Part shown: positions 9,103 through 59,339 of the stretch, in pieces | How the letters are laid out: each line of letters begins with the position of its first letter | Numbering within the stretch: position 1 is the first letter of the stretch | Origin: Octopus vulgaris | Taxonomy: Eukaryota | DNA: 64,000 nucleotides | Assembly: GCA_951406725.2 (NCBI GenBank) | Contig: OX597825.1 | Span: 31,248,001-31,312,000 of the forward strand | Direction: 5' to 3' | Program-made: the position numbers and the translations under genes | Notes under the pieces: model-generated | What the model was told of the DNA's origin: nothing | Database searches by the model: none | What the model saw: the letters and a program-made list of their open reading frames with translations, nothing else

Positions 9103-10594
9103 CAGAGTACAGGTGAATAAACTGTTATCTAAATTACCCAAAAATGAAAATAACACTGACATCTCATCTTGACAGATATATTTACCAAAATTACATAAAA
9201 ATATCTTGAAATACTAAAGAGTAAATTTATACAATAAAATTCAGTAAAATTTACACTATCACTTTCTCTCTCTTTCTCTCTCTCTCTTTCACACACACAC
9301 ACAGCAACACACACCTTCTCTCTCTCTCTTTTTCTCCCTCTCTTTCTTTCTCTCTCTCAGTCAATCACTCACACATTCACCGAAAAAGATGTGAGAAAAA
9401 ATAAATTAAAAAATGTACGCTGTCACTTGCTCTCCCACATACACACACTACACACACTTTCTGTCTCACACACCCCATCAACACATACACATGTCCTCTC
9501 TCTTTCACTTTATACTGACTTCAATCAGAATGTACATTTCCACTCACAAAAAAAAATTAAAATTTTTTACGGAATTTACCGAACGCCATAAGGTAACAGC
9601 TGAGCTGCACGCACACACCTTTGAGTTAAAATGAAAGATTGCCAAAATGGCTAGGCTATTGCCAAAATTTCTAAATATTTCTATTTTTTTCATTTTTATT
9701 GCATTAATTAATACAGATGACATAATTAAACTAATTACAAATTAGCCGTGTCGTTGATATTTTTTTCTTACCTTAATGATGCAGGTAACATATATTAAAA
9801 GTCCCTTATAAAACTATATTCATAAAATAGTATAGAACTATATTATCAACCTCAAATTTGAGAAACAAACACTCATAACATTTTTTTCTTTTAAAACTTC
9901 ATTGCATGAGATTGATACCATGAAATTGCTTGAAATGAGCTCTATCATTTAAGCTTAATTAAAATATAGTTTGCTTTTAAAATAAAGAAGTTAATTATAC
10001 TTAAATCCAAATTTTTGCCTTACTTATATTTTTTTATGATATTTTACCTCACAACTGTTTTGATACAAATTTTTGTTGCATGGGATCAAAACTATGAAAT
10101 TCTTTATGCTTTCTTCTATCATTGAAGCTAAGATAAATGTATTTTGCTTTTAAAATAAAGAAGTCATCTAGATTTAAACTTGATTGGAGGCATTACTTAC
10201 TCTCCTATAATGTTGCTACAAATTTTGATGTAAACTTTTTTCTACTGGACCAAATCTCAATTTTTTTATGCCAAAATGTATCTAGGGACCAGCCCTCTTC
10301 AAAAATGTTAACAGTTTTTAATTTGGTTATGAACTGAGTTAGTGACAAAGCTCTAGAGACGCTGCATGTGAGTAAATTGCAGACTTAAAAATATTATTCA
10401 ACAACTATCATAGTTGAATGATTAAAAAAAATAGATTGTGATAGTTGTAATAATTTTATAATTGTGGTAATCTGTCTTCATCAGTAAAACTGCTAATTGT
10501 TAAATAGTAAGTAATAATCATAATGTTAGCTGCTGGAAAGTTACACTAAATTTACCCAATTAATAAATCTCAAATTATATCAAATGATGAATTT

Positions 10595-12232
10595 ATAAAA
10601 CACCAGCAATGCTGCAACGCCACCTAAAGAATAAACGCAATTATGCCTCTCCTGGTCTCGATGGTGTCACATACCTACTTCTCAAACGCGGTGGGTACTT
10701 TCTTCTAAACCAACTTTCTCTATTCTTCCAATTCTGTCTTGACAATGGTGTTACTCCAGAACAGTGGAAAACTGCCAGTGTCATCCCTCTGTTCAAAAAA
10801 GGCGACCGCACATCGCCTGTCAACTATCGCCCTGTCAGTCTTACCAGCTGCATCGCCAAACTGATGGAATCCTGTATCAGAGAAACCCTCTGAAACTTCT
10901 GGAAGTCTCACAGCCTCATTCAGCCGTCACAATTCGGATTTATTCCTAACTCCAGCTGCTGTAATCAACTCATCGAGTTTCTTGAGGATGTTACCCAAAT
11001 CACTGATCGCGGATCCTGGGTGGATGTTGTTTACCTGGACTTTGCTAAGGCTTTTAACTCTGTGCCACACAAAAGACTTATGGTGAAGCTTTCTGCGTTG
11101 GGTGTAAGAGACGAACTCTATAACTGGTTAAAGTCCTTTATTTTCGACCGAAAAGAGGTTGTCACAGTTCTAGGACAGAACTCTTCGCCCTATGAGATGA
11201 CATCTGGTGTGCTGCAGGGATCTGTTCTTGGCCCCCTTTTATTTGTTGCATATGTTAATGACATAGATGCCAACTTAAAGAATGCCACAGTGCTGAAATA
11301 TGCAGATGACATCAAGCTGTACCTCGAAATAAAGAGGTCAAATCCTATACACTATGGATCTCTATTGCAAGCAGACCTGGACACAATGCAGCAGTGGATC
11401 ATGGACTGGCAACTCAAGCTGGCTGTGGACAAATGTACCACCATGCATTTTGGGAGGAGAAACCCAGTGTCCACCTACTCCCTCCACAACCCTAGTCTCA
11501 AAAAGTCTTCAAGTGAACGTGACCTGGGTGTTATTGTCGACAGTGATTTGCATTGGACAAAACACATCGCCAAAATTGTCAAGAAGGCTGAGGGTGTCTT
11601 GGCATCACTCACCAAATCCTTTGTGAGCCGCTCTCCGGCTATCTATCTGCGGCTTTATATAGCTATGGTAAGACCTCACCTGGAATTTGCATCACCGGTC
11701 TGGAACCCCTATCTTGCCCAGGACATCAATTGTCCGGAAGCTGTTCAGCGACGTGCAACCAAAAGAATACCCTCCATCAGGCATTTGCCATATCCTGAAC
11801 GCCTTACTTCCCTGGGCATGGACACATTGAAACTCCGACGTCTGGCAGCTGACCTGGCAGACACCCATAAAATTATCAACCATCGCACAAACAATAACAC
11901 TGAGCACCTCTTCAAACTCCACCCATCTAACACCCGTGGACATATTTACAAAGTAAGAAAACAGCACAGCTCCCATGACTTCAGGAAACATTTTTTCATG
12001 CTGAGAGTTGCTGAAGCGTGGAACAAACTGCCGGCATCGGTTGTTAGTTGTCGGAACACTGCATCCTTCAAGACTTCCATGCTTCCTGAGATTCGCCAAC
12101 ACTACACTTGATTTTCTCCCCTCCATACACACACAAGCATGTTCACTTTCCAGACATTTCTACATTACTGCATGTACTTTATATGCACTTTCTGACAAGT
12201 TGTGGTGCACCTGAGCACTGTATACAATAATT

Positions 12233-16170: not shown

Positions 16171-16913
16171 TAAAACAACAAACAAAATGTACAAGTGTGC
16201 TACAAGTCATTGAAGTCACACACTCTCATCAGTGAAGACTAAGCTTCTGTTTCTTTTCATTTCTGTAGCTACAAGTAAAAGATTACATAATTTATTTCCA
16301 TGCACTACTACTACTACTATCACCACTACAACAACAACAACTACTACTGTTACTACGTGTATTGCAGCTAGAAGAGAAAAACAGGTGATTTTGGTGGTTT
16401 ATTGGTATCATGCACTAGTGAAATGCAGAGTCAATTGTGTGATTTTCCTTGACTAAAGTCATGTTAACATTGGATGATCAGCTCTGTTGACTTTAAGGAA
16501 AGATAGGAAAAGGGGATTTGAGGGCATTGATGACGTTTTTCTAAGAGCCAGGAGCATTCTAAGTAAAGTGAAGTGAAATGAAGGTAAAGAACAAAGAGTG
16601 GTAAGCAGGAATTGAACCTGGGTCGCCAGCTTGGTTTGTTGCTAGATTTACCACTTACACTACAGGGCTTGTCACAATGCAACAAAAAAATAACTAGAGA
16701 AACTACTAAGACTACTACTACTACTACTACAACAACAACAACAACAACTACTGCTATTACTACTACTACTACTACAATATTATGTAAAACCGTTTACCGC
16801 ATATTTCAGGAATTCTTTTTTTTCCAAACTCCAATTTAAAATGATGGCATTTTTTCTGTTATCGATGCAAGTTTTCCCTGAAACTAGACAAAGAAATAAA
16901 ATGGTTGACCTAC

Positions 16914-17034
16914 CCAAAAGACACAGAGTATGCATCCCTTTCTCTCGGTTAGACGCTATTTTGTCATAAAAACTATCCGGTTGCCATGTATCAGTCCAAA
17001 AACAGATTGATACAGTCTCTCCAAACTTGTAGAG
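16914..17034 (-). CDS. DPH5: DPH5 coding exon 5
   Basis: tttcag|[40 protein letters not shown]+G|gtaggt; 121 nt, phase 0 to 1; conserved [10 protein letters not shown] and GMHTLCLL. Confidence 0.97.
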
Positions 17035-20238: not shown

Positions 20239-20744
20239 CAGACAGACATATGGGCTTACATAAAATTTACACCTTTCAAATTCACTGACAAGGTATTGGT
20301 TGGCCTGAGGTGATGGTAGAAGACACTTGCCCAAGGTAGTGCTGTGCTGTGGGAATGAACCCAAAATCATATGGTTGTGAAGCAATTTTCTTAACCTCAC
20401 AGCCATATTTGCACCTATTTTCATTAGCTAGATGAACTATGTGAATTAATTGAAAATATGAATTAATTGAAAAGTTTTCGGAGAAAAGAGCAGCTGAGAG
20501 AAGGTGAAGCAGTGTGTGCACACAAACATCAACAAGTTAACATGCAAAAGTAACCAAATCACTAATTGAAGGAACAACCACTCACATGCACATAATTAAA
20601 GTGCACTGAATTCATTTAACTTTCAAAGTAATCAATATTAAATGTTCAACACTTATTTTGTGCAATTAACTATTAAGGCTTTATTTTCATATACACGTGT
20701 ACAAACATATATATATACATACATATATATATATAATATATATA

Positions 20745-20905
20745 GGCACAGGAGTGGCTGTGTTGTAAGTAGCTTGCTTACCAACCACATGGTTCTGGGT
20801 TCAGTCCCACTGCGTGGCATCTTGGGCAAGTGTCTTCTACTATAGCCCCGGGCCGACCAATGCCTTGTGAGTGGATTTGGTGGACGGAAACTGAAAGAAG
20901 CCTGT

Positions 20906-20952
<47 letters not shown>

Positions 20953-21151
20953 GTTTGTCCTCCTAGCATTGCTTGACAACCAATGCTGGTGTGTTTACGT
21001 CCCCGTCACTTAGCGGTTCGGCAAAACAGACCGAGAGAATAAGTACTGGGCTTACAAAGAATACGTCCCGGGGTCGATTTGCTCGACTAAAGGCGGTGCT
21101 CCAGCATGGCCGCAGTCAAATGACTGAAACAAGTAAAAGAGTAAAAGAGTA
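20745..21151 (+). mobile_element. Full-length CORE-like SINE
   Basis: Same family as 13501-13953, inserted in a (TA)n tract. Further plus-strand copies at ~41794-42200 and 50984-51243. Confidence 0.9.
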
Positions 21152-21656
21152 TATGTATGAGAGAGAGAGAGAGATTTTAAATGTCATTAGTGCAGGATAT
21201 CATTAAGTTGTTACTGTATATATTGAAGATTCAGCTTCCAGCAAGTGTGTGTGTGTGTATATGTGTGTGTGTGTATGTGTGTGTGTTTGACATGTGTGTG
21301 TTTGACATGTGTGTGTTTGACGTGTGTGTGATTGTAAACAAATGGAAACAAAAGAGAACTCAATACATGGTGCCCAACTGCATCTTCAGTTATATTCACA
21401 TTGCTATACTCTACTCTTTTACTTGTTTCAGTCATTTCACTGCAGCCACGCTGGAGCACCACCATTAGTCGAGCAAATCAACCCCAGGACTTATTCTTTG
21501 TAAGCCTAGTACTTATTCTATCGGTCTCTTTTGCCAAACCACTAAGTTACAGAGATGCAAACACACCACCATCGGTTGTCAAGCGATGTTGGGGGGGACA
21601 AACACAGACACACAAACATATACACACACATACATCATCATCATCATCATCATCAT

Positions 21657-21690
<34 letters not shown>

Positions 21691-22601
21691 ATACGATGGG
21701 CTTCTTTCAGTTTCCGTCTACCAAATCCATTCACAAGGCTTTGGTCAGCTCGAGGCTATAGTAGAAGACATTTGCCCAAGGTGCCATGAATGAACCCGGA
21801 ACCATGTGGTTGGTAAGCAAGCTACTTACAACATAGCCACTCCTGCACCTATATAGATTTAAGCCTCAAATATATCCACACACACTCAAAATGTCTCTTT
21901 CATATATTATTTGCTGTTTTGTGCTTAAAACAAATATTTATTTCTAATAGGAATTTGCTTTATGCATGTATATATATGTGCATATGTATATGTATGTATG
22001 CATTGTGTGTGTGTGGCTAGAAAGATATAGAGAATTTTCGTGAATGAGTGTTGAGATTTTGGGTGGTGAATAGCTGCCTCATCAGGGCCTCCAAAAATAG
22101 TGAAAGGAAGGGAGGAAAAGATTCATAATAAGCTGAACTCCATTAAAGGCCAGGAGGAGGAGGAGGAGGAGTTGTTGGTGGTGGTTTCAAGCCAGGCTAT
22201 GTATTAAGTCTAACCTACGAGTCTAGAACATTTACCCCACCCCATGGACAATAACCCTCCCCCACCAAGAACAATTACACCTGAAGACAACAGATAATGA
22301 TTTAAAACTTCTTAATATATTGGAAAGTGGGTAATTAACCAAGATGAGTAACTGTCCTAGTGTGGTAATTGCCTTGATACACTAACACACAAAAACTTGT
22401 GCCACAAAAACAAAAAGAGCAATTTGTACTTTCTGTAAAGTGGTTGATATGAGGGAAAGGTACCCAGCCATTGGAACCATGAAACAAGACAATCTCCTCA
22501 GATCTATCTTACCCAGATCAGCATGTGAAACAGACATTAAATGATAATGATGATTATATAAATTAACTATTAAGGCTTTATTTTCATATACACATGTATA
22601 G

Positions 22602-22651
<50 letters not shown>

Positions 22652-22725
22652 AAGATTTTAAATGTCATTAGTGCAGGATATCATTAAGTTGTTACTGTAT
22701 ATATTGAAGCTTCAGCTTCCAGCAA

Positions 22726-22764
<39 letters not shown>

Positions 22765-23119
22765 TGTGTGTTTGACATGTGTGTGTTTGACATGTGTATG
22801 TTTGACATGTGTGTGATTGTAAACAAATGGAAACAAAAGAGAACTCAATACATGGTGCCCAACTGCATCTTCAGTTATATTCACATACATTGCTATACTC
22901 TACTCTTTTACTTGTTTCAATCATTTCACTGCAGCCACGCTGGAGCACCACCATTAGTCGATCAAATCGACCCCAGGACTTATTCTTTGTAAGCCTTGTA
23001 CTTATTCTATTGGTCTTTTTTGCCAAACCACTAAGTTACAGAGATGCAAACACACCACCATCGGTTGTCAAGCGATGTTGAGGGTACAAAAACAGACACA
23101 CAAACATATACGCATACAT

Positions 23120-48910: not shown

Positions 48911-49045
48911 CAGTTCATCTTTGCCAACAGTCAATATCGATGTATATGCCTCTAAATAGACTCGATCTGCTGCTCTCACGATTTCTAATCCTTTCACTGT
49001 AATATCCTTTGCATCACCTAACCCAAGCCCTATGAAATAAAACAT
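48911..49045 (-). CDS. DPH5: Diphthine methyl ester synthase, first coding exon
   Basis: Reverse complement reads [45 protein letters not shown], the DPH5 N-terminus (GLGLGD motif, YLEAYTS). 135 nt, followed by GT donor (gtatgg). Confidence 0.97.
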
Positions 49046-49200
49046 GCTTTTTTTTTCCTTTCGATGTTGCGAACCTTAATATATAAACAAACTTGTAGTA
49101 GTCGGTCAAGGGAGATCACTCTAAAAACTACTCTCCTCACAAAGGTTTATGCGTGGGTGTGCATCCGTATATCTGTATGTGACGTCACAAACACATTGAT
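49046..49200 (-). promoter_or_regulatory. Probable DPH5 5' UTR/proximal promoter with perfect CRE palindrome
   Basis: Immediately upstream of the ATG; CpG-containing; 12-bp palindrome TGTGACGTCACA at 49178-49189 contains the full CRE TGACGTCA. Confidence 0.5.
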
Positions 49201-49733
49201 TATCTTCTGTCTTGGGAATATAATAATTATTTTCTTGTCTAATATATAAAGATACGCATATGAAATTACTTATAAATTACTACAATCATTTCGGGCGATT
49301 GAGTGAAGAGCAGAAAACGTATTCAGTTTATTTCATTATTTCGTTTTTATGGTTAATAACAACCAGTTATTCGTGACGTATTTTTTGTATATCATTTGAT
49401 ATTTAATGATACTTTGATATCCATAATACTTGTTCTTGAATGCACTCGCTGTATTCCACTAACAAACCGTCCTCGATAATTTATTCATGTTTGTACAGTT
49501 CCAAGGCGAGAAAGTGCATTGCTTTTCAGATAATTTATGCAGATAGCCTCTTCTTGATAACAAATGTTTAGTTTTTTTCTTTATGAGGATGCCCTCCGCG
49601 CTGATGTTTTTCTTGTCTGCATATATTATTTTTGATGCTTTTTCTCCGCGAAGCACTGGCAACAGGCGCATGCATCGAATTTGTCATTACTGACTTGTTT
49701 ATATTATCTTGTAGGAGATGTCTCTAAGTAATT

Positions 49734-50764
49734 AACTTCAGTGGTTTATATTTTTTTTACCACATGTTAGTTTAGCACATGAACTCATGTACAATATTGT
49801 ACGTCTGCTTAATGATTCTCTCATCATTACTTCGGTCAGTATGGCGAAGCTTCAACATTACTGAGGAGATATAAATAAGGCTGGAATATGTTCCACTGCT
49901 GTCTCCCCTACTTGAAGAAATTATTTAAATTAATATCAGTTTTTGGATCTTTTCCTTTTGAACGGCAGTTTTCAACACAATTTCTAGTTAACTAAACACT
50001 TTTAAACTTCTTATACTGATAGAATGTGTCAAAATAAAACATTTTTTTCTCTTGGCTTTCTTGAAAAAATTGTAATTTGTAAGTTTTAATTTTTCGAATT
50101 TTAACCAATCCTATGCCCTCTATTTAGCTAAAATCATTTGCTGCGTCTAAAACAGACAATATCTTGTCACTAACCATAACCCTCACCCTAACCCTAAATT
50201 TTAACCTTTCGGGGGTTTTTTTTCTTAATTGTTAAATTAATTTAAGGATAACAATAAAGAAAAAAATCGAAAGGCTAAAACCAAAGCAAAAACTCAAAAC
50301 AAAAACAAAACGAATAATTTTAGACACACGCGTAACAATTAAATTAATTTAACAATTAAGAAAAAAAACGAAAGGCTAAAATTTAGGGTTAGGGTTAAGG
50401 TGAGGGTTAGGGTTAGTGACAAGATGTTGTCTCAGTTTTAGACGCAGCAAATGATTTTAGCTTATTTTGACACATTCTTCCAGTATACGAAGTTTAAAAG
50501 TGTTTAGTTAACTAGAAATTGTGTTGAAAACTTCCGTTCAAAAGGAAAAGATCCAACTTCAGTGGTTTATATTTTTTTACCGCATGGTAGTTTAGCACAT
50601 GAACTCATGTACAATATTGTACGTCTGCTTAATGATTCTCTCATCATTACTTCGATTAGTATGGCGAAGCTTCAACATTACTGAGGAGATATAAATAAGG
50701 CTGGAATATGTTCCACTGCTGTCTCCCCTACTTGAAGAAATTATTTAAATTAATATCAGTTTTT
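49734..50764 (+). repeat. ~210-bp direct repeat pair (49734-49944 and 50555-50764) abutting the foldback element
   Basis: Both copies run AACTTCAGTGGTTTATA...TAATATCAGTTTTT; about 5 differences seen by eye. Confidence 0.95.
49945..50554. mobile_element. Non-autonomous foldback/MITE-like element with long TIRs and internal inverted telomere-like repeats
   Basis: Starts GGATCTTTTCCTTTTGAACGG and ends CCGTTCAAAAGGAAAAGATCC. Arms are complementary over most of their length, with CCCTAA-type repeats on the left (~50170-50197) and TTAGGG-type repeats on the right (~50383-50416). No ORF. Confidence 0.85.
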
Positions 50765-51063
50765 GATCTAATATTATCTTTTCCTCACCACATTAAAATT
50801 TCTAATTTGATTTTTGATGCTTTACACTTAATATGTTCTTATCTAACTATCGATTTTCATACAGATGGCGCCTCTGAGTAATTTGCGTTAGAGATGAAAG
50901 TTACCAATATTATAACTAATAGTTTTGTTGCTGCTGTTGCTCTTTCGGGCCTAGGTCATCCTTGATGAAGCAAGCCCACTACAAAGTGTCTTCTGCTATA
51001 GCTTCGGGCCGACCAAAGCTTTGTGAGTGGATTTGGTAGACGGAAACTGAAAGACGCCCGTTG

Positions 51064-57384: not shown

Positions 57385-57725
57385 AATTTCGTTTGGGATT
57401 TGGTTTGCAAAATTCTTTATATGAGTTCGTGTGTTGAAGCATATTCTGTTGTGTCTGGGGAGAGTCCTTTTCTTTTTGTGCCTTATAAAAATAAATTTCC
57501 ACTTTTTTCCTTATTTTTATTTTCCTAAAATTTTCGTTGCGTCTTGCAACCTTTTCAATAGTCTTGACTCTCTGAGAGTCAAGACTAATGAAAAAGTATT
57601 GAAAAGGTTGCAAGATGCAACGAAAATTTTAGGAAAATAAAAATGAGAAAAAAAAGTGAAAATTTTACCGGTGAGTGTGTTACATTATAAGGCACAAAAA
57701 ATGACTCTCCCCAGACACAACAGAA
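57385..57725. repeat. Long palindrome (inverted repeat)
   Basis: Arms ~57447-57560 and ~57597-57724 are complementary; central stem TAGTCTTGACTCTC-T-GAGAGTCAAGACTA (57559-57587). Confidence 0.9.
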
Positions 57726-57870: not shown

Positions 57871-58139
57871 TGTGACAAATTGTGTTTAGGATGATGTGTT
57901 TTAAGTGCTGTTACATCCGTCTCCTTCAATTTGGAATAACAAAAGTTGGCAGGTCAGCTTATTTGATGTATAGTAATGATATACTAAAATTACAATAATC
58001 CAGGACAGTTATAACTGCCTCGCTTAAAAAAAGTATCAAAGCTTCTGGAATCTCATATTGATGAGTATTCCAGAAACACTTTCACTCTCCACGTAATCCA
58101 CCGACAGCATCTGCTGCCCTTTGGATCGCAAGACACTCC

Positions 58140-58855
58140 AGCGTGTGACAAATTTTGCCCTTTGGATTATGGGTACACTCCATCAGCATGTGACCAGTTT
58201 TGTCCTTTGGATTACGAGTATACTCCATCAGCGAGTGACAAGTTTTGTCCTTTGGATTACGGGTACCATCCATCAGCATGTGACAAGTTTTGCCCTTTGG
58301 ATTACGGGTACATTCCATCAGTGTGTGACAAATTTTGCCCTTTGGATTACGGGTACACTCCATCAGCATGTGACCAGTTTTGTCCTTTGGATTACGAGTA
58401 TACTCCATCAACGAGTGACAAGTTTTGTCCTTTGGATTACGGGTACATTCTATCAGTGTGTGACAAGTTTTGCCCTTTGGATTACGGGTACATTCTATCA
58501 GTGTGTGACAAGTTTTGCCCTTTAGATTACCGGTACCATCCATCAGTATGTGACAAGTTTTGCCCTTTGGATTACGGGTACATTCTATCAGTGTGTGACA
58601 AGTTTTGCCCTTTAGATTACGGGTACATTCTATCAGTGTGTGACAAGTTTTGCCCTTTGGATTACCGGTACCATCCATCAGTATGTGACAAGTTTTGCCC
58701 TTTGGATTACGGGTACCATTCTATCAGTGTGTGACAAGTTTTGCCCTTTGGATTACGGGTACATTCTATCAGTGTGTGACAAGTTTTTCCCTTTGGATTA
58801 CCGGTACCATCCATCAGTATGTGACAAGTTTTGCCTTTTGGATTACGGGTACAGC
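58140..58855. repeat. 45-bp minisatellite, ~16 units
   Basis: Unit GTGTGTGACAAGTTTTGCCCTTTGGATTACGGGTACATTCTATCA; no unique spacers. Confidence 0.97.
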
Positions 58856-59339
58856 CCATCCGACGAAGTTCACTCAGTTTACCTTTACCCAGAGGTAAAA
58901 TATACTGGACCAAAATGTCACGCTATGTCACGGTACCCGAAATTGCATAGCTATTAGGAAGTCTTTACTTCTTGGTAACTTTTAATAAGGGAAATATGTT
59001 GAAGTTTGCTAAGAAAGCCCCTTTTTAAAAGCATTTATATAACTTCGCAAACCTTCACCTTCCCTTTTTCTTATACCAAAAAGGTTGTTCAAAATCTCAC
59101 TAAGTGAAATGTAGAAACGTAGCAAGTTCGGGTCAAAGAGGGGGGGGGCAGTTGATTACATCGACCACCAGTACGCAACTGGTATTTATATTATTCGACT
59201 TCGATAGGCAAAATCTTCCTCAGCGGTATTTAAACTCATAACATAAAGACGGATGAAATGCCGCAAAGCATTTTGTCTGGTTACGTACTGAAGATTCTGT
59301 CCGCTCGCCGCATCATTTTTTTCTGTAACATATTAGTTT

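Follow-up and report, generated by a model that had tools for sequence, protein, structure and literature searches.

The window analysed here, a 64-kb stretch of DNA, contains two exons of a DPH5 (diphthine synthase)-like gene on the minus strand, at 16855-16980 and 48911-49045. With over 30 kb between them, the gene must extend across much of the window. The latter exon, of 45 aa, matches the TIGR00522 dph5 model with an E-value of 6.7e-14, and its ATG is at 49045. Upstream of this start codon, at a distance of 689-1719 nt, lies the feature under study, in which a foldback element (E) is placed between two copies (A and B) of a host segment. A previous sequence-only reading had put the feature at ~0.7-1.7 kb from the start codon, which agrees with this distance, and the coordinates, termini, and flanking duplication of ~210 bp that it described proved exact to the base (Table 1).

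Table 1. Features of the A–E–B locus and the neighbouring exon, in window positions
Feature	Position	Strand	Evidence or remark
First coding exon of the adjacent DPH5 (diphthine synthase)-like gene	48911..49045	-	context only
Copy A, duplicated host segment, 211 nt	49734..49944	+	left boundary TAATT^AACTT; self-alignment; single copy in X12 record 9
Element E, 610-nt non-coding foldback/TIR element	49945..50554	.	ends GGATC...GATCC; alignment, folding, frame scan
Left outer inverted-repeat arm, 93 nt	49945..50037	+	4 mismatches relative to the right arm
88-nt segment of the left arm only	50038..50125	+	alignment; likely lost from the right arm
Left inner inverted-repeat arm	50126..50245	+	contains CCCTAA-like tract 50170-50197
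A-rich central spacer, 93 nt	50246..50338	.	sequence
Right inner arm	50339..50462	-	contains TTAGGG-like tract 50383-50416
Right outer inverted-repeat arm	50462..50554	-	alignment
Copy B, duplicated host segment, 210 nt	50555..50764	+	right boundary TTTTT^GATCT

The two copies of the host segment are 97.6% identical and differ by four substitutions (49762/50582, 49767/50587, 49835/50655, and 49837/50657) and one indel in a T run. Their identity stops sharply at the left, with 0 further bases, and extends by 1 base (G) at the right. Both ends of E are intact and abut A and B with 0 added bases at either junction. As had been noted before, the DNA following B starts with GATCT. No further copy of A or of E is present in the 64 kb. 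The segment 49100-50980 was also aligned with four of 24 listed public runs (X1, X2, X12, and X21), rows with a small share being left out of the evidence; of these runs, X1 and X2 (organisms A and B) come from different studies with different organism labels, and either may be the source of the assembly.

The fold of E is very stable, with an energy of -206.8 kcal/mol (z -36.5), none of 20 shuffles being equally good, and its 21-nt terminus occurs twice in the window, compared to 0 occurrences expected from 100 shuffles. The earlier description of E as a near-palindromic element holds with respect to the inverted arms. These, however, do not make up one palindrome but two blocks, an outer one that has 4 mismatches over 93 nt and an inner one of ~120 nt with 88% identity (3 substitutions and 3 indels), the left arm having in addition the 88-nt segment that is missing on the right. 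In X1 and X12, there are loose contig ends before 50468/50470 that are similar to the reverse complement of this segment, which was likely lost from the right arm. The inverted repeat reaches 2 nt into the flanks (TT-E-AA). E has no coding capacity, as the longest stop-to-stop frame lying wholly inside it amounts to 43 aa. Six microRNA-precursor models of Rfam match the element, all far below the gathering score, and these matches are explained by the hairpin.

The sequence-only reading had also called E telomere-repeat-bearing. Tracts of the CCCTAA and TTAGGG types are indeed located in the two arms around the A-rich spacer, but the term overstates their nature, since they are short (28 and 34 nt, corresponding to 4.7 and 5.7 degenerate units, with two exact CCCTAA and three exact TTAGGG hexamers) and lie 140-230 nt inside the ends, as mirror images within the inner repeat. 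An assignment to telomere-bearing elements, which are defined by telomeric repeats at their very ends, was rejected on these grounds. The tract at 50383-50416 has very high depth with varied flanks in all four runs, including the raw reads of X21, where the element is lacking, so that such short tracts must be abundant in other repeats of these genomes.

That the duplication is real follows from the contigs of X1 and X2. In both runs the contigs stop at 49797, which is 30 nt beyond the A/B difference at 49767, and in X2 they resume at 49838, 1 nt beyond the difference at 49837; such ends and restarts at A/B differences are the graph signature of two copies. In X1, record 8, the ends of which are deduced from coordinates, has a depth of 375.8, to be compared with expected values of 375.4 for two copies and 305.5 for one, where the two-copy calculation takes the depth of 305 found on 49609-49797 while that on 49100-49607 is 46. 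In X2, record 17 has a depth of 100.7 (expected 106.0 for two copies and 59 for one) and spans the junction between A and E with 0 differences. The branching of the contigs and the two-copy depth dispel the concern, raised with the sequence-only reading, that the duplication could be an assembly artefact.

The site before the insertion is seen in X12 (organism C). Record 9 of this run is one 1401-nt contig with a depth of 12, which covers 49100-49750 and then 50573-50980 with nothing between, and differs from the window by 46/651 and 27/408 letters in the two parts (73/1059, i.e., ~7% divergence). The divergence between A and B (4/210) is well below this value (Fisher p 0.004) and the contig is unbroken, which makes it very likely that organism C has a true empty site L-A-R, where L and R are the flanking sequences, with one A and without the element. 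Contigs may nevertheless conceal an element at such a site, as one X1 contig passes directly from the shared segment to R and skips E. The single-copy orthologous site that the sequence-only reading had suggested to look for in a related species is thus observed. The A/B duplication arose after the lineage had separated from organism C; the ancestral arrangement is L-A-R, and the present one is L-A-E-B-R with both element ends intact. X21, sampled as raw reads at about 3 in 100, shows next to no depth on the ends of E and has two flank differences in common with X12; the organism behind this run seems to be more distant, despite carrying the same label.

The presence of a single A without the element in organism C shows that A is duplicated host DNA and not an LTR-like part of E. 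A layout of direct repeat, core, and direct repeat does resemble the LTDR-INT-LTDR arrangement (PMC9587614, excerpt), and no contig among those listed spans the entire A–E–B structure. The idea that the direct repeat is a part of the element, as in LTR-like or KolobokP-like terminal direct repeats, or that the duplication is an assembly error, is nonetheless highly improbable. The direct repeats do not travel with E, as A is a single, element-free host copy in X12 and two-copy in X1 and X2; moreover, A has no inverted ends and is ~1000-fold rarer than E, and the contig breaks and depths fit exactly two copies. In the region 50597-50668 and the matching part of A, ~50-60 nt match other loci in X12 at ~83% (records 10-13), and the duplicated host segment thus appears to contain an old repeat fragment.

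E belongs to a large family. Summed over the bins of its ends, the depth in X1 and X2 reaches 0.5-1.6 million, compared to 46-305 on the unique flank, which is a roughly 5,000-30,000-fold excess but not a copy number; likewise, the end depth of up to 8,541 against 12 on the flank in X12 is an excess of a few hundred-fold and not a copy number. The family has roughly thousands of copies, and it is of much greater size, or of younger age, in organisms A and B than in organism C. With its outer and inner inverted arms, its lack of coding capacity, its dispersal, and its absence from the orthologous site of the relative, E is a non-autonomous TIR/foldback (MITE-like) element, as had been proposed. 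In X1 and X2, several contigs joining 50043-50048 to 49940-49947 contain ~100 nt of the left arm, then 3-5 other letters, and then the element end again; these are nested or tandem family members at the T run after the outer arm. Exact scans with the 21-nt terminus gave 0 loci in viral contigs, 1 in metagenome contigs, and 2 in prokaryote genomes, all three matching over 21-23 nt only and attributed to chance.

Information on the flanks of other copies comes from 82 X2 contigs that enter the left end of E (49945) from unlike flanks, the loose-end evidence being based on the 24 rows listed out of 853. Their median unbranched loose length is 255 nt, which is probably the maximum reportable. A young and long duplication should cut the junction contig early, and at the E locus the cut occurs after 107 nt. 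In simulations, a 210-bp duplication had a chance of at least 255 unbranched nt of 0.0003 at 2% divergence and 0.03 at 5%, and a 100-bp one of 0.03 and 0.24, respectively; at 5% divergence, duplications of 40-60 bp gave 0.5-0.7, and at 10% divergence 0.45-0.92 of the copies pass 255 nt. The balance leans toward many family copies being without a long young duplication, as judged from a set that is biased to older copies, since junction contigs of young long duplications are very short and may drop out.

The flanks of the 82 loose ends finish with ..AATC (one consensus row, with an agreement of 0.39), which together with TT-E-AA suggests that the family may prefer a T-Y^R-A target site, a motif recognized post hoc. 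In the empty site, each of the two breakpoints is a full match to it, as TT^AA and TT^GA. The half-sites that do not touch E (TT at 49732-49733 and GA at 50765-50766) fit as well, with a chance probability of about 0.025-0.027 (post hoc), in keeping with a whole target site at either breakpoint. A short target-site duplication (TSD), if any, would be concealed within the 211-bp duplication.

The repeat landscape of the window appears similar to that of an octopus genome. A window-wide scan gave 103 candidate inverted pairs, only one of which, E itself, is flanked by a duplication of at least 10 nt, the other 102 being mostly pairs of dispersed repeats rather than TIR elements. Foldback-like inverted repeats without abutting duplications lie at 53256-53500/53624-53912 (76% over 289 nt) and at 57513-57644 (48-nt arms). 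There is a second local direct duplication, 20664-21631/22561-23119, made up of 490 nt at 94% and 81 nt at 91%; a dispersed repeat at about 20735-21153 interrupts its first copy, and its second copy stops at 23119, where another repeat begins, presumably with a mariner-like frame. The inverted-pair scan gave no TIR element with an abutting duplication at 20664-23119. Further afield, two abutting frames of 100 and 405 aa with a stop between them (10591-12111, plus strand) read like a reverse transcriptase that we take to be from a non-LTR retroelement, while a tandem array at 58015-58957, whose plus-strand frame is a 239-aa cysteine-rich repeat (units like CDKFCPLDYGY), is probably a non-coding minisatellite inside or near a gene region.

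The first way to account for the A–E–B arrangement is the widely staggered nicking that the sequence-only reading had considered: as a habit, or at least in a sizeable minority of its insertions, the family would join its ends to nicks that are tens to hundreds of bases apart, in which case the 211 bp would be a true target-site duplication. The intact ends abutting the duplicate with 0 added bases and the single A of the empty site agree with this. So do the ages, which are compatible: the arms of E differ at 7/207 positions and A and B at 4/210 (p 0.38, no difference), so that E may have inserted and A been duplicated in a single step. The one family copy in the window (1/1) also has a long duplication. 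A bacterial precedent is provided by IS1549 and IS1634, whose target repeats of 8-514 bp, a range that includes 211 bp, flank elements with inverted ends, through a mechanism called unexplained in bacteria in 2008 (PMC2266710, excerpt). These elements (IS1634 family) differ from E in being bacterial, in encoding a transposase, and in that their habit is shown across copies, while here one animal copy with no ORF is likened to them by description (PMC2266710, excerpt). The 82 X2 contigs stand against such a habit, their median of 255 unbranched nt being improbable for duplications of 100-400 bp at up to 5% divergence (0.00-0.24), and so does the resemblance of both breakpoints to whole target sites. 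In addition, the remaining 102 inverted pairs, mostly of dispersed repeats, are all without such flanks, and the TSDs of eukaryotic DDE elements are given as 1-10 bp (PMC13565253, excerpt). A literature search, with most subscription papers outside its scope, did not yield any TIR family of eukaryotes whose duplications reach hundreds of bases. We consider a family habit rather unlikely.

The explanation that we favour, at about even chances, is that A–E–B was produced by one aberrant hybrid-end (alternative) transposition into an empty homologue at a site 211 bp from an existing copy, and not by a normal insertion of the family. The first step would be an insertion of E by the usual family route on one side of A, such as TT^AA at 49733/49734, probably with a DDE transposase that acts in trans at T-Y^R-A sites and leaves at most a very short duplication. 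Once the locus had been replicated, this transposase would have paired opposite E ends from two sister chromatids, and the hybrid would have entered the empty homologue on the other side of A (TT^GA), 211 bp away. One product of this step would be L-A-E-A-R with a single element (L-A joined to E-A-R), the reciprocal deletion product being lost, and A and B would then have drifted by the four substitutions and one indel. The single-element geometry is a derivation of the present analysis that draws on work on P elements, for which hybrid element insertion is reportedly described in Gray 1996 and Preston 1996.

Precedents for the separate parts of this mechanism are available. The hybrid-end step is described in general terms in PMC1952172 (excerpt), and P-element hybrid element insertion is cited in PMC3744419 (excerpt). 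The latter paper reports transposon-made tandem direct duplications in maize, 116-1262 bp long in the reference genome and 3 in number among 7611 hAT insertions, two of the cases having duplications of 116-148 bp with 93-99% identity (PMC3744419, excerpt). The likeness of E to P-element hybrid insertion and to the reversed-ends transposition of Ac/Ds lies in a TIR element placed exactly at the junction of a small tandem host duplication. In contrast, the maize products retain two element copies or fragments with an 8-bp TSD on one of them, while the E locus has one intact element and no discernible short TSD (PMC3744419, excerpt), which counts against the hybrid-end transposition.

In favour of this transposition are the empty site with one A and no element in the X12 contig, the many family copies that seem to be without a long young duplication according to the 82 X2 contigs, the fit of both breakpoints to whole T-Y^R-A sites, and the start of the duplication exactly at an intact element end. 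On the other hand, the contig set is biased, and the target motif is post hoc and based on one row with an agreement of 0.39. The like age of element and duplicate possibly points to one event, and a rare event would not be expected in the only family copy of the window, unless the selection of the locus explains it. Among the 15 of 44 joints listed in the four runs, there is no intermediate allele (L-E-A-R or L-A-E-R) and no reciprocal deletion. No transposase was found, nor, in the scans of viral contigs, metagenome contigs, and prokaryote genomes, an autonomous partner with the ends of E, which itself has no ORF.

Two further one-off events have been considered. The same L-A-E-A-R structure, with two whole target sites, would result if two independent insertions of this abundant family, one per edge of A on different haplotypes, had recombined unequally through the element, and the asymmetric arms (the 88-nt segment and the three inner indels) could then represent a chimera of two copies. 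This would need two insertions 211 bp apart that co-segregate, which we expect to be rare at about 10^4 copies in an animal genome of large size without local hopping, and no single-insertion allele is present among the 15 of 44 joints listed in the four runs; such an exchange is improbable. Alternatively, a break or a stalled fork at the very stable hairpin of E may have led to host repair or replication slippage, with a template switch at TTG (or TTGGATCT against TTTGATCT) between the left junction of E and the DNA after A. Since the DNA after B begins with GATCT, a switch after TTG gives the exact junction. The shared identity at the junction is, however, 1 base, the 3-base homology presumes that E was first at the left site, and a target preference (the ..AATC of the loose ends) would account for the GATCT likeness just as well; a template switch is quite improbable. 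The like ages of element and duplicate (p 0.38) speak against both events, as do the lack of intermediate alleles among the listed joints and the fact that the sole copy in the window would be the odd one.

Regarding the placement of E among known systems, variable or long target duplications in eukaryotes also occur with the R9 and Dualen retroelements; these have no TIRs, and E has no poly-A end. Replitron-1 shares with E the variable or long target duplications in a eukaryote, but the terminal repeats of Replitrons are short and direct and their enzyme is of the HUH type, whereas E has long TIRs and no direct-repeat end (PMC10288648, excerpt). Cryptons, which came to mind for TT^AA-type insertion, were discarded because they are described as being without TIRs (PMC3212892, excerpt). 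Spy elements of the PHIS group have ends that begin with GGA, occur with long TIRs and in molluscs, and use AT-rich targets possibly without a TSD, all of which is similar to E; however, they insert between AAA and TTT and have GGANNNNG ends (PMC4122938, excerpt). E is flanked by TTT and AAC and has GGATCTTT ends with T at position 8, and it was not assigned to Spy under this rule (PMC4122938, excerpt).

Kolobok and KolobokP resemble E in their RR..YY ends (GG..CC in E, a weak feature), in being common in molluscs, and in the TTAA present at the left breakpoint of E. They differ in that E does not have TTAA on both sides and that its direct repeats are host DNA without inverted ends (PMC9587614, excerpt). 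A Kolobok assignment was rejected by the same source's rule of a TTAA TSD, which is missing here, the left flank ending with TTTT and the right one beginning with AACT (PMC9587614, excerpt). The terminus motif of E gave one chance match and no consensus match in four supplement files of PMC9587614, and its terminus motifs gave none in the supplement files searched of PMC10294476 (files 13-33, which could contain a related consensus, fall outside this search). The literature search yielded no description of the E family, which may be filed in Repbase or Dfam, both outside its scope.

If the long duplication were a family habit, E would be a eukaryotic counterpart of the IS1549/IS1634 behaviour, with promoter-proximal DNA copied and thousands of sites involved. 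It would break the rule of about 1-10 bp duplications for eukaryotic cut-and-paste elements and would provide thousands of natural events for studying a mechanism that PMC2266710 describes as unexplained for bacteria. Structure-based MITE finders would then misread the whole family, and the behaviour would be new for animal DNA transposons.

Overall, A–E–B is a real and dated transposon-linked duplication beside DPH5, and in all likelihood it reflects a rare event, of known kind, within a high-copy family. With hybrid-end transposition as the best reading, the locus would represent a clean natural case, complete with an outgroup empty site, of a small tandem duplication that a transposon made 0.7 kb upstream of a housekeeping gene. 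Such a case, from an animal that has not been studied in this respect, would be useful rather than surprising.
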